This document shows positions 11,862-27,018 of a stretch of 64,000 nt of DNA, piece after piece. This DNA is from Gammaproteobacteria bacterium. GTDB lineage: Bacteria > Pseudomonadota > Gammaproteobacteria > Eutrophobiales > Eutrophobiaceae. Position numbers and translations under genes: made by a program. Every line of letters begins with the position of its first letter. Position 1 is the first letter of the stretch. Location of the stretch: positions 2,176,001-2,240,000 of the forward strand of contig OZ244905.1 of assembly GCA_965221695.1 (NCBI GenBank), written 5' to 3'. The notes below the pieces were generated by a model that ran no database searches, was not told the DNA's origin, and saw nothing but the letters and a program-made list of their open reading frames with translations.

Positions 11862-11934
11862 GGGTCGTTAGCTCAGTCGGTAGAGCAGCTGACTTTTAAT
11901 CAGTTGGTCGCAGGTTCGATTCCTGCACGACCCA
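11862..11934 (+). tRNA. tRNA-Lys(UUU); CCA not genome-encoded
   Basis: GGGTCGT/ACGACCC acceptor, anticodon loop CTTTTAA, T-loop TTCGATT; followed by A-TCT rather than A-CCA. Confidence 0.97.
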
Positions 11935-23958: not shown

Positions 23959-25083
23959 ATGAGCAGGGAACATCACATGCCGCCGGCTGGAGGCAGAGGT
24001 TCCGAAGAAATGCACAGTGTTGTAACCCCCCCGGATTTTCGGCTGCCGCCGGAACAGGTTCCCGAGACGGTTGTCGAACACCTCGCGAATGAGGAGCGGG
24101 ACGCGTGTATGCGTCAGATCAAGCGGCTGCTGCGGGAACAGAATGCCGTATTGGTCGCGCATTACTACACTGACCCGGATCTGCAACGGCTCGCGGATGA
24201 AACCGGCGGCCATGTATCCGATTCCCTGGATATGGCGCGCTTTGGCCACGAATCCGACGCGACCACGCTGGTCGTCTGCGGCGTGCGTTTCATGGGCGAG
24301 ACGGCAAAGATACTGAACCCGGAAAAACGGGTGCTGATGCCGGAACTGCAAGCTGATTGCTCCTTGGACCTGGGTTGCCCCGGTGACGCGTTCAACGCCT
24401 TTTGCGACAGCTATCCGGACCGTACCGTCGTGGTCTATGCCAATACCAGCGCCGCAGTGAAAGCGCGCGCCGACTGGATGGTCACGTCTGGCAGCGCGGT
24501 GGAAGTGGTCAGACACCTGGCGGAACAAGGAGAAAAAATCATCTGGGCGCCGGATAAGTACCTGGGCGAATATGTGCGTGAGCAATCCGGCGCGGACATG
24601 ATGTTATGGCAAGGTAGTTGCATCGTCCACGAGGAGTTCAAGGGCAGGGAGCTGGGAGAACTGAGACAAAAACACCCCGCCGCCAAGGTATTGGCGCACC
24701 CGGAATCACCGGCCCCGGTCATTGCCCAGGCCGACGTGGTCAGTTCCACCACGGGCATCATCAAGGCGGCGACCGAACTGGCGTCCGATACGTTCATTGT
24801 CGCAACCGATAAGGGCATCTTCTACAAGATGCAACAGGCCGCGCCGGACAAGACCTTTATCGAAGCGCCCACAGCCGGCCGGGGAGCCACCTGCAAAAGT
24901 TGCGGCCACTGCCCGTGGATGGCGATGAACAGCCTGACAAAGCTGCTGGAAACACTCCGTTCGGGCGCCAACGAGGTATTTGTCGAAAAGGAGATCATCG
25001 AACGCGCCCGCATACCGATAGAGCGGCTGCTGAACTTTGCCGCGCAACGCAAACAGGTCATCTACGGCAACAGCGACGCCTGA
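23959..25083 (+). CDS. nadA: Quinolinate synthase A
   Basis: [59 protein letters not shown]. Confidence 0.97.
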
Positions 25084-25125
25084 CCCAAGCGTCATAATCG
25101 CACCGCCCAGATTTTTTCCGTTTTT

Positions 25126-25141
25126 TGTGAGTTTTATCACA
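25126..25141. promoter_or_regulatory. Perfect CRP/FNR-superfamily box TGTGA-N6-TCACA
   Basis: TTTTTGTGA GTTTTA TCACAAAAA; centre 25133.5 is -61.5 from a putative TSS at A25195. Confidence 0.7.
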
Positions 25142-25159
25142 AAAACGCGAAAGTTTTCT

Positions 25160-25188
25160 TTGCCGAACAGAACATCTTTTCTCAGAAT
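25160..25188 (+). promoter_or_regulatory. Putative weak sigma70 promoter for the tRNA-like pair (sense strand)
   Basis: TTGCCG (25160-65), 17-bp spacer, CAGAAT (25183-88). Confidence 0.5.
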
Positions 25189-25196
25189 GGGCTGAT

Positions 25197-25227
25197 AAAA
25201 AACCCGTCCCCCTAAGGAGACGGGTTT
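25197..25227 (-). terminator. Intrinsic terminator of antisense unit 1 (possibly weakly bidirectional)
   Basis: CCCGTC/GACGGG GC stem followed by T6 on the minus strand; TTTATTCT on the plus strand. Confidence 0.8.
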
Positions 25228-25232
25228 ATTCT

Positions 25233-25335
25233 GCCCAGGTGGTGAAATCGGCAAACACAGGGGACTGCCACTCCCCCGGCCTCTGTAGCGAAACCTACAT
25301 GCCTTACGGGTTCGAGCCCCGTCCTGGGCACACCA
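25233..25335 (+). tRNA. Non-canonical tRNA: tRNA-Leu-type body, anticodon GCC (Gly), 29-nt variable region, ACACCA 3' end
   Basis: Acceptor GCCCAGG/CCTGGGC; D-arm GTG..CAC with GG; anticodon stem GGGGA/TCCCC, loop CT-GCC-AC; T-arm ACGGG-TTCGAGC-CCCGT. Confidence 0.8.
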
Positions 25336-25350
25336 TAGGCGCCAACAGCC

Positions 25351-25379
25351 ATTATCGTGGCCGGCGCAGGACTTGTCAA
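25351..25379 (-). promoter_or_regulatory. Sigma70 promoter, antisense to tRNA-like unit 1
   Basis: Minus strand reads TTGACA AGTCCTGCGCCGGCCAC GATAAT (17-bp spacer). Confidence 0.8.
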
Positions 25380-25385
25380 TATGAT

Positions 25386-25417
25386 AAAAAAACCCGTCCC
25401 CCGAAAGGGACGGGTTT
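25386..25417 (-). terminator. Intrinsic terminator of antisense unit 2
   Basis: CCCGTCCC/GGGACGGG stem followed by T7 on the minus strand. Confidence 0.82.
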
Positions 25418-25422
25418 ATTCT

Positions 25423-25525
25423 GCCCAGGTGGTGAAAACGGTAAACACAGGGGACTGTCACTCCCCCGGCCTCTGTAGTCAGACCTACATGCCTTACGGG
25501 TTCGAGCCCCGTCCTGGGCACACCA
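25423..25525 (+). tRNA. Non-canonical tRNA: tRNA-Leu-type body, anticodon GUC (Asp), 29-nt variable region, ACACCA 3' end
   Basis: Same stems as copy 1; anticodon loop CT-GTC-AC (25455-25461). Confidence 0.8.
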
Positions 25526-25540
25526 TAGGCGCCAACAGCC

Positions 25541-25569
25541 ATTATCGTAGCCGTACAGGGGGCTGTCAA
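25541..25569 (-). promoter_or_regulatory. Sigma70 promoter, antisense to tRNA-like unit 2
   Basis: Minus strand reads TTGACA GCCCCCTGTACGGCTAC GATAAT (17-bp spacer). Confidence 0.8.
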
Positions 25570-25679
25570 CAACATTTCGCGTACAGAAATCCGCGCGCAA
25601 TATATCAAGATATGCGTCTGCCCTGACTTGAATTATAAAACCATAAATGGGAACATTCCGTTAAAACCCGGAAAGAGAT

Positions 25680-26426
25680 ATGGCAGGACACAGCAAGTGG
25701 GCGAACATCCAGCATCGCAAGGGCCGACAGGACGCCAAGCGAGGTAAATTATTCAGCAGGTTGATCCGCGAGGTCACGGTATCCGCCCGGCTCGGCGGCC
25801 CCGACCCGGACGGTAACCCGAGGTTGCGCGCGGCCATCGACAATGCGCTGGCCGGCAACATGCCCAAGGACACCATCGAACGGGCTGTGAAGCGCGGCGC
25901 GGGCGGCGCGGAAGGCGAAAGCCTGGAAGAAGTGCGCTACGAAGGATACGGACCGGGCGGGGTCGCGGTAATGGTTGATTGCATGACTGACAACCGTAAC
26001 CGCACTGTCGCTGAGGTGCGGCACGCCTTCTCCAAATGTGGCGGCAATCTTGGCACTGACGGTTCCGTCGCATACCTGTTTTCCAAGGTTGGGCAGCTTT
26101 CCTACCCGTCTGGCACCGATGATGACGCCTTGTTGGAGGCTGCGTTGGAAGCGGGCGCGGAGGATATTGCAAACAATGATGACGGAACCGTTGACGTCTT
26201 GACCACACCGGAAGACTTTCTCGACGTCAGGGACAGCTTGGTTGAGACAGGTTTCCCGCCCGATGCCGCAGAGGTAACGATGCGCGCGGCAACCGGGCAG
26301 ACGCTGGACTTGCGTGGCGCGCAGACCATGACGTTGCTACTGGACACGCTGGAAGACCTGAACGATGTGCAGAAAGTGTATTCCAACGCGGATATTCCCG
26401 ATGAAATCCTGGCCCAGCTTGATTGA
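25680..26426 (+). CDS. yebC: YebC/PmpR family protein
   Basis: [33 protein letters not shown]. Confidence 0.98.
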
Positions 26427-26472
26427 CTGTGGAACTGGCGCGCGCCAGGCGGCGCGCAAACGTTGACAACCC

Positions 26473-27018
26473 ATGACTGATACCGGCGTCAGGCGCGAAA
26501 CGATACGAATTCTCGGCATTGACCCCGGGTCTTTGCATACCGGGTACGGTCTCATCGACATGGACGGAAATCGGGCCGTGCATGTCGCGCACGGCCAGAT
26601 AACAACCCAGGCAGGAGAGTTGTCCGATAAACTGCGTCAGATCTTCCGCGGCATCAGCTCGGCAATCAGCGAATTCGAGCCGGACGAATGCGCGGTGGAA
26701 AAAGTCTTCATGTATCGCAATGCCGATTCGGCGCTGAAACTGGGACAGTCGCGCGGCGCCGCCATCACCGTTTGCGCCGAGCGTAACCTGCCAGTGTTTG
26801 AATATACGGCCAACCAGGTCAAACAGGCCACCGTGGGCAAAGGTCATGCGGAGAAAGCTCAGGTGCAATACATGGTCAAAGTCCTGTTATGCCTGGCCAG
26901 CATTCCCCAGTCGGATGCCGCGGACGCGCTGGCGGTCGCCCTGTGCCATGGGCATTCGCGGGAGAACCTGTTGCGCCTCAAGCAAGTTTCAACGGCCCGG
27001 CCGGGACGCTCCCTGTGA
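26473..27018 (+). CDS. ruvC: Holliday junction resolvase
   Basis: ILGIDPGS..TGYG, SALKLGQSRG, DAADALAVALCH. Confidence 0.97.
   Translation: MTDTGVRRETIRILGIDPGSLHTGYGLIDMDGNRAVHVAHGQITTQAGELSDKLRQIFRGISSAISEFEPDECAVEKVFMYRNADSALKLGQSRGAAITVCAERNLPVFEYTANQVKQATVGKGHAEKAQVQYMVKVLLCLASIPQSDAADALAVALCHGHSRENLLRLKQVSTARPGRSL

Follow-up and report, generated by a model that had tools for sequence, protein, structure and literature searches.

The window analysed here, a 64,000-nucleotide stretch of a gammaproteobacterial genome (contig OZ244905.1), carries two tandem units, located 190 bp apart between a nadA-like open reading frame (ORF) that ends at 25083 and an ORF of the yebC family that starts at 25680, both of these neighbours having been named by eye. 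Two convergent and conserved promoters flank the tRNA-shaped segment of this element and share one hairpin. There is about an even chance, judging from the comparison of related copies, that each unit represents a convergent RNA gene pair, i.e., a hybrid tRNA whose expression would depend on an activator and which would be held in check by a constitutive antisense RNA complementary to it. The features of the locus are as follows:

25126-25141, no strand: proposed activator-site palindrome TGTGAGTTTTATCACA of the CRP-consensus type, its centre 61.5 bp 5' of the inferred sense start
25160-25165 and 25183-25188, + strand: inferred weak sense promoter TTGCCG-17-CAGAAT, start near 25195; 8/12, under the scan threshold
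25197-25230, both strands: hairpin 1, with an A-run and a T-rich run at its flanks; serves as terminator for antisense RNA 1 and as 5' leader hairpin in the sense RNA
25233-25330, + strand: cloverleaf 1, derived from tRNA-Leu (Rfam tRNA, 52.1 bits; likeness to tRNA-Leu(UAA) genes), discriminator A at 25330
25265-25271, + strand: anticodon loop CTGCCAC of cloverleaf 1, anticodon GCC at 25267-25269
25284-25288 / 25295-25299, + strand: variable-arm stem of cloverleaf 1, with the hypervariable loop CGAAAC at 25289-25294
25344-25379, - strand: antisense promoter 1, -35 TTGACA at 25379->25374, -10 GATAAT at 25356->25351, inferred start near 25344
25197-25344, - strand: predicted antisense RNA 1 of about 150 nt, bounded by promoter and terminator; fully complementary to cloverleaf 1 and ending in the terminator
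25387-25420, both strands: hairpin 2, terminator of antisense RNA 2; ends 7 bp ahead of the -35 box of promoter 1
25423-25520, + strand: cloverleaf 2, derived from tRNA-Leu (Rfam tRNA, 53.3 bits)
25455-25461, + strand: anticodon loop CTGTCAC of cloverleaf 2, anticodon GTC at 25457-25459; hypervariable loop TCAGAC at 25479-25484
25534-25569, - strand: antisense promoter 2, -35 TTGACA at 25569->25564, -10 GATAAT at 25546->25541, inferred start near 25534
25387-25534, - strand: predicted antisense RNA 2 of about 150 nt, on the same basis as antisense RNA 1

Antisense promoter, terminator and distribution of the element

A consensus scan of positions 24000-27000 returned TTGACA-17-GATAAT on the minus strand at 25379->25351 and 25569->25541, each with a score of 11/12, and the scan yielded three promoter-like sites in total versus 1.4 +/- 1.1 in shuffled sequence. 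Hairpin 2 comprises a 12-pair stem-loop (25417->25390) followed by TTTTATCATA, while the first hairpin has an inner stem at 25220->25208 followed by ACGGGTTTTT, hairpin and U-run together lying around 25220->25197, all on the minus strand. An earlier inspection of the letters, here referred to as the sequence-only reading, had placed both promoters and both hairpin-plus-U-run terminators at coordinates which the scans found to be correct to the base. It had also held that the boundaries of the duplication are those of the antisense unit, and this is indeed the case: the direct repeat (25197-25363 / 25387-25553; 94% identical over 167 nt) starts at the hairpin, and the likeness stops just beyond the -10 box.

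The comparison set used throughout consists of 37 distinct copies with full flanks, drawn from 82 BLAST hits (alignment A1), from which hits without the 150/260 nt flank or less than 100 nt long were left out. In these copies the -35 hexamer TTGACA is identical in 37/37, while the -10 box reads GATAAT in 26, GATACT in six, GACAAT in two, CATAAT in two and AATAAT in one, with A2, A4 and T6 invariant in all and 0.09 differences per site. The 17-bp spacer between the two boxes occurs as 27 distinct sequences with 0.52 differences per site per pair and without a single gap (the two spacers in the window differ at 9 of 17 positions), and the trailer separating the tRNA from the -10 box differs at 0.46 per site, that of the body being 0.085. 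These values substantiate the proposal that the hexamers and their 17-bp spacing are under selection, and the check on related copies that had been suggested alongside it was equally favourable, as the -35 box and the U-run are kept in all 37.

Across both strands of the 3.54-Mb genome, TTGACA-N17-GATAAT occurs five times; three of these occurrences belong to copies of this element and the fourth lies directly upstream of a tRNA-Tyr/Gly/Thr operon, while TTGACA-N16-18-TATAAT is found upstream of the single rRNA operon. As the near-consensus string is thus shared with a tRNA operon, and a similar one with the rRNA operon, the antisense promoter can be placed in the stable-RNA class. A minus-strand hairpin with a U-run of 6-8 nt is present in all copies and includes one compensatory pair (U-A to C-G in three copies). 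Antisense RNA 1 is predicted to fold into a mirror cloverleaf with the terminator attached (-69.9 kcal/mol, z -3.7), and the values for antisense RNA 2 are similar (-70.1 kcal/mol, z -3.3). Just beyond the 3' end of the tRNA, in what would be the 5' tail of the antisense RNA, a CCAAAGG block is kept in 34-37 of the 37 copies, even after insertions of 1-2 nt; since CCA directly follows A73 in only 16 copies, retention of the whole block points to a role in the antisense tail. The antisense unit is very probably a real gene.

Several other identities were considered for the minus strand and rejected. Rfam 15 gives no family at gathering score on this strand, the best match, ncr1175, reaching 23.9 bits versus 60 and being driven by the terminator hairpin; the remaining sub-threshold matches, among them Betaproteobacteria toxic sRNA and anti-hemB, lie on this hairpin as well. 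The mirror strand does not qualify as a tRNA of its own: by eye it has no spacer after the acceptor stem and has a 29-nt arm between the 'D' and anticodon arms, and Rfam returns no minus-strand tRNA match. No conserved start codon or ORF was seen on either strand of the alignment by eye, the ATGs of the window being replaced in most other copies. The sequence-only reading had not recognised the arrangement as a described family, which agrees with the outcome of the Rfam search, where the two strands together give tRNA only.

The source genome contains three copies of the element. The third (G000:C1:285519-285702; see also L003 1300-1560, G000:C1:285329-285520) is located about 100 bp upstream of a genuine tRNA-Leu(CAG) gene and is oriented like it, such that its antisense promoter falls between the element and that gene. 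The full element is present in 12 of the 22 other members of the genus, an uncultured gammaproteobacterial one; for example, at this locus the closest relative (G008) carries three units in tandem, while another relative (G003) has ten copies inside 11 kb. A pattern built on the variable arm and T arm, with at most two mismatches, matches two genomes in a class-wide sample of 401 (321 genera), namely the source genome and an unpublished genome with a single two-mismatch site. The same pattern has nine sites on seven metagenome stretches, and the layout is identical at all seven sites with upstream sequence. Searches of plasmid and phage collections by blastn returned no match to the element.

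Two of the relatives show further peculiarities. In G004 (L035, about 1287-1594) a broken copy has unrelated sequence in place of the hairpin and the first ~20 nt of the cloverleaf, while its 3' part and antisense promoter are retained. The array of G003 (L039 1500-14000; G003:C1:1144500-1157000) is embedded in a dense mosaic with at least five other repeat families, including a 96-nt unit (14 copies, 92-100% identity) and a 42-nt unit (24 copies), together with small paired ORFs and one ORF with internal repeats of 27 nt and 33 nt. An integron attC-like or cassette array was considered for this region and rejected, as several repeat families without relation to one another are intermixed there and do not form a series of regular cassettes.

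The cloverleaf, its loops and the proposed sense promoter

On the plus strand both segments match the Rfam tRNA family RF00005, with 52.1 bits (25233-25330) and 53.3 bits (25423-25520) versus a gathering score of 29; ARAGORN calls neither cloverleaf, presumably because of the 29-nt variable arm. The acceptor stem, the 3-bp D stem, the D loop, the anticodon stem and the T arm are those of the tRNA-Leu(UAA) genes of other Gammaproteobacteria, to some of which the first 35 nt are identical, and the likeness to the tRNA-Leu(UAA) of the source genome itself is only 71%. The departures from a real tRNA-Leu are a changed anticodon loop and a variable arm formed by a 29-nt long hairpin. Bases U8, A14, A15, G18, G19, A20a, A21, U48, T54, Psi55, C56 and A58 are invariant in all 37 copies, R57 is G in 36 and A in one, and both A73 and C2-G71 are kept in 36. 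Variation is limited to positions 16, 17, 20, 32, 35, 38, 59 and 60 and to the variable arm, which are the positions that vary among real tRNAs. According to the available part of one source (PMC9976931), the identity elements of Escherichia coli leucyl-tRNA synthetase (LeuRS) are A73, A15:U48, G18G19, A20a and the tertiary pairs of the D and T loops, neither the anticodon nor the long arm is required for leucine identity in that organism, and C2-G71 is an antideterminant against SerRS. All of the E. coli LeuRS identity elements are retained in the cloverleaf.

Base pairing in the alignment is equally tRNA-like: 95.8% of the cells of the cloverleaf are paired versus at most 49.9% with slid partners, and four compensatory pairs occur. 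One-sided changes gave rise to 18 G-U cells in the sense orientation, common to several diverged copies, whereas A-C cells, which correspond to G-U in the antisense RNA, number only six, each in one copy, a pattern that weakly favours a folded sense RNA. The sense RNA is probably a functional and regulated product. The units had earlier been described as dedicated 'anti-tRNA' transcription units; the conserved antisense promoter and terminator uphold that part of the description, but the antisense strand does not stand alone, as the sense strand keeps the tRNA and LeuRS bases, the G-U pairs and an activator-type promoter of its own.

The anticodon does not agree with the identity of the body, a leucine body being combined with GCC or GUC in 35 of the 37 copies (GCC 18, GTC 17, GCT 1, ATC 1), and both main types are usually found within one genome. 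The 44 tRNAs of the source genome form a normal set, with tRNA-Gly(GCC), tRNA-Asp(GUC) and five tRNA-Leu among them, and the loop of its tRNA-Asp, CTGTCAC, is identical to that of cloverleaf 2. Among 554 ORFs with 500 codons or more, GGC ranks second and GAC fourth in codon usage, with GGY and GAY together amounting to about 130 per 1000 codons. The anticodon loops of the window (25265-25271, 25455-25461) also fit C32-U-N-N-C-A-C38, which the available text of PMC9976931 gives as the recognition sequence of the DNMT2 tRNA methylase in human tRNAs; this fit probably just reflects the copying of loops of the tRNA-Asp/Gly type.

The tip loop of the variable arm is found as 26 distinct sequences in the 37 copies, with 0.57 differences per site. 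The 12 closest pairs, defined by at most four differences in 180 non-loop columns, have 38 differences in the 6-8 loop columns versus 35 in the 180 others, or about 30-fold more per site. For example, unit 2 and its counterpart in G008 differ only at four of the six loop bases over the 188 aligned columns compared. Because the same loop types recur across species on different backbones (TACAAG 3, CGAAAC 3, TAAGAG 2, TAATAG 2), the data suggest a shuffled repertoire rather than drift. Furthermore, in contigs of four DNA runs, in which paralogues are mixed, variant letters cluster at both variable-arm loops. An origin of the loops as copies of leucine anticodons or of other tRNA loops was rejected: many do contain CAA or TAA, which reflects no more than an A-rich composition.

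Upstream of the units, the plus strand has a perfect TGTGA-N6-TCACA palindrome (25126-25141), which is present in 31 of the 37 copies, with no mismatch in 24 and one in seven; four of the six copies that lack it are internal units of tandem arrays. With the sense start assumed to lie 7 nt past the best -10-like hexamer before the A-run, the palindrome is centred at -60.5/-61.5 in 23 copies, at -41.5 in six and elsewhere in two. In the E. coli literature -61.5 and -41.5 are the two classical positions of CRP-type activators (class I and class II, respectively), and no -35 box is present in the -41.5 group, as expected where an activator sits at that position. The genome holds nine perfect palindromes versus 2.6 expected; six others have the extended form AAAATGTGAGTTTTCTCACATTTT and lie ahead of unrelated promoters, which indicates a general regulator site. 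Two proteins of the CRP/FNR family are encoded (G000:C1:647703-648431 and 945681-946532), with best CRP-model scores of 56 and 37 bits versus a cut-off of 266.

Of the other sites bearing this palindrome, four (G000:C1:424821, 427661, 828838 and 1442746; loci L140-L143) combine its extended form and a -35/-10 module with a downstream non-coding stretch of ~200-300 nt that is conserved at three or four of the loci. L140-L143 gave no Rfam match at gathering score, L140 is without a plus-strand ORF of at least 100 amino acids within 1.4 kb, and these loci may constitute a second multi-copy non-coding RNA family of the same regulon. Overall, no Rfam family was found downstream of the palindrome at loci of the genome other than the element itself. 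The palindrome also precedes a gene for a secreted helix-hairpin-helix protein, ComEA-like by eye, at G000:C1:2174469 (L145), 1.5 kb before the window. In other Gammaproteobacteria, competence genes depend on CRP.

Proposed mechanism and rival explanations

In the mechanism that we propose, the plus strand would produce a tRNA-Leu(UAA)-derived RNA with the anticodon loop of tRNA-Gly (GCC) or tRNA-Asp (GUC) and a 29-nt variable arm, transcribed from a weak promoter dependent on a CRP/FNR-type activator at -61.5 or -41.5; within a tandem array, such an activator promoter would belong to the first unit alone. The antisense RNA of ~150 nt would be made constitutively and in excess, would end at the hairpin just 5' of the tRNA, and would pair with its own sense partner from exposed loops, after which the duplex would be degraded; alternatively, the sense transcript would be blocked by convergent transcription. 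With the sense RNA either destroyed or never completed, the hybrid tRNA would accumulate only when the activator fires. The tip loop of the variable arm could act as a kissing-loop address matching each antisense RNA to its own partner, the anticodon loop being the other free loop of the folded tRNA. A silencer role had been among the options of the sequence-only reading: silencing of the unit's own sense partner is the version that is favoured here, at roughly even probability, whereas the cell's real tRNAs were rejected as targets since the longest run identical to any of them is 11 nt, too little for targeting by long pairing.

As all LeuRS identity elements are kept, the freed tRNA would most likely be charged with leucine, reading GGY or GAY, and its minimum effect would be to compete at the ribosomal A sites of very frequent codons. 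Actual mistranslation is possible but unlikely. It is likewise unlikely that the element forms an RNA-only, toxin-antitoxin-like switch for programmed mistranslation, in which a leucine-charged reader of GGY/GAY escapes the antisense RNA when the activator fires. Such an escaped tRNA would corrupt or stall translation, with, e.g., forced dormancy or aborted infection as a result, its targets being about 13% of all codons of the genome, while the loop address would keep up to ten paralogous antisense RNAs each matched to its own tRNA.

A number of observations weigh against the convergent gene pair. CCA directly follows A73 in 16 of the 37 copies and in neither copy of the window, whereas 41 of the 44 real tRNA genes encode it, and U33 is replaced by C in three copies. 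The 37 copies are kin, so that the counts given above exceed the independent support, and the conserved tRNA positions could partly reflect a young age, given the 0.085 differences per site in the body. The search for the sense -10 box required A2 and T6, which means that the quality of the hexamer is partly built in; the sense promoter of the window reaches only 8/12, below the scan threshold, although a low score fits an activator-dependent promoter, which is expected to be weak. No orthologue-grade CRP or FNR was found in the genome, both candidates being far under the equivalog cut-offs. Furthermore, on the sense strand the shared hairpin precedes a T-rich run (TTTATTCT) and would occupy roughly +5 to +40 of the inferred transcript, where it could halt most sense RNAs ~40 nt from their start, before the tRNA is reached; this hairpin may act as an attenuator. 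Finally, a leucine-charged reader of GGC/GAC would be very harmful, yet one relative carries ten copies.

The strength of the antisense signals also allows for a different view, in which the antisense RNA is the only functional product and forms a trans-acting small RNA (sRNA) family, the tRNA shape being a relic and the upstream promoter a means of shutting the sRNA off by convergent transcription or an anti-sRNA. The near-consensus and invariant antisense promoter, a terminator that is strongest on the minus strand, the maintenance of CCAAAGG in the antisense 5' tail despite insertions, and the fact that the unit duplicated in tandem arrays is exactly the antisense unit all speak for it. Nonetheless, we regard it as unlikely, because the variable positions match those of real tRNAs (16, 17, 20, 59 and 60) and the tertiary and LeuRS bases are invariant, a pattern for which a mirror-image RNA has no reason; moreover, the sense orientation retains G-U pairs, A-C cells being confined to single copies, and complementarity to real tRNAs is at most 11 nt, with no target found.

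A selfish or decaying tRNA-derived repeat, mobile or recombining and without cellular function, with the signals merely carried along, would account for the multi-copy and patchy occurrence (12 of 22 other genus members), for the ten-copy array of G003 amid several other repeat families in 11 kb, for the truncated copy in G004 and for the absence of the element outside the genus among the genomes searched. It is nevertheless quite improbable: invariant hexamers and an invariant tRNA core next to a fast-changing spacer, trailer and variable-arm loop imply that particular parts are under purifying selection, the element is accompanied by no transposase, integrase or terminal repeats, no plasmid or phage match was obtained, and the window copy sits between nadA and yebC-family genes. 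A selfish addiction module, by contrast, is compatible with a convergent gene pair and is not a rival to it. The least probable of the explanations, and a very improbable one, is that of ordinary, if unusual, tRNA genes read from the plus strand only, with minus-strand signals that do no more than insulate them from neighbouring transcription. The clear Rfam tRNA match, the upstream sense promoter and the intact tRNA core are what it would predict, but a leucine body with Gly/Asp anticodons in a genome that already has tRNA-Gly(GCC) and tRNA-Asp(GUC) is not, single copies have no sense-strand terminator after them, and insulation needs no consensus -35 box with a fixed 17-bp spacing, kept in 37/37.

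Relation to known systems

Cis-antisense control with kissing loops is known from ColE1 RNA I/RNA II, R1 CopA/CopT and the type I toxin-antitoxin systems of the hok/sok type. As in those systems, the element is predicted to have a constitutive, strongly promoted and structured antisense RNA of 100-150 nt that is fully complementary to a regulated sense RNA, with loops that vary between paralogues and stems that are fixed; in contrast to them, the target here would be a tRNA-like RNA, not an mRNA or a replication primer, and there is no conserved peptide ORF. The element shares with type I toxin-antitoxin systems a conserved promoter and terminator opposite the sense unit, known here from sequence, but it has no small hydrophobic peptide toxin, and as this defining component is absent it is not assigned to that class.

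Bacterial tRNAs of hybrid identity (mistranslating tRNAs) have previously been described, among them tRNA-ProX of Streptomyces/Kitasatospora (PMC11415595). Judging by the available part of that source, tRNA-ProX and the present element are alike in combining the body and identity of one amino acid with the anticodon of another and in being confined to a narrow group of environmental bacteria. They differ in that the element studied here has a leucine body, Gly/Asp anticodons, a 29-nt variable arm and no dedicated synthetase paralogue nearby, and in that every gene has a convergent antisense unit and an activator-type promoter. In the same available text (PMC11415595), neither a hybrid tRNA with a leucine body and a Gly or Asp anticodon nor an antisense partner is described.

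Antisense tRNA transcripts have been seen in transcriptomes of Pseudomonas aeruginosa, and the authors of that work, in the portion available, state that such RNAs are otherwise known in prokaryotes from one archaeon (PMC8765398). The resemblance lies in RNAs complementary to tRNA genes, predicted in the present case, in a gammaproteobacterium; the P. aeruginosa transcripts were seen at the level of reads and stem from ordinary tRNA genes, with no dedicated promoter or terminator mentioned in that portion (PMC8765398), whereas the present element has a conserved, self-contained antisense gene at a non-canonical tRNA. 'tRNA-Other' of Bacillus cereus is likewise a tRNA-like gene, said in the accessible part of its source to be non-translational and yet to affect physiology; it differs in being a single gene of different origin, with no antisense unit mentioned in that part (PMC3399842). 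Full-text literature searches retrieved no account of any tRNA gene that has an antisense promoter and an antisense terminator dedicated to it.

The control circuit seems to be written into the gene itself, in the form of an activator-dependent sense promoter, an antisense promoter of stable-RNA grade and a shared terminator. If the proposed gene pair is real, it would represent the first family to pair a cis-antisense RNA with a tRNA as the regulated and potentially harmful component, and it would provide both a compact 190-bp module for testing regulated mistranslation and a case from nature in which loop addresses confer specificity among paralogous antisense pairs. Should the antisense RNA alone be functional, the element would still constitute a new conserved sRNA family with its evolutionary origin in the strand opposite a tRNA gene. 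Elsewhere in the window, at 11862-11934, lies an ordinary tRNA-Lys(UUU) gene (78 bits) that is unrelated to the tandem units.

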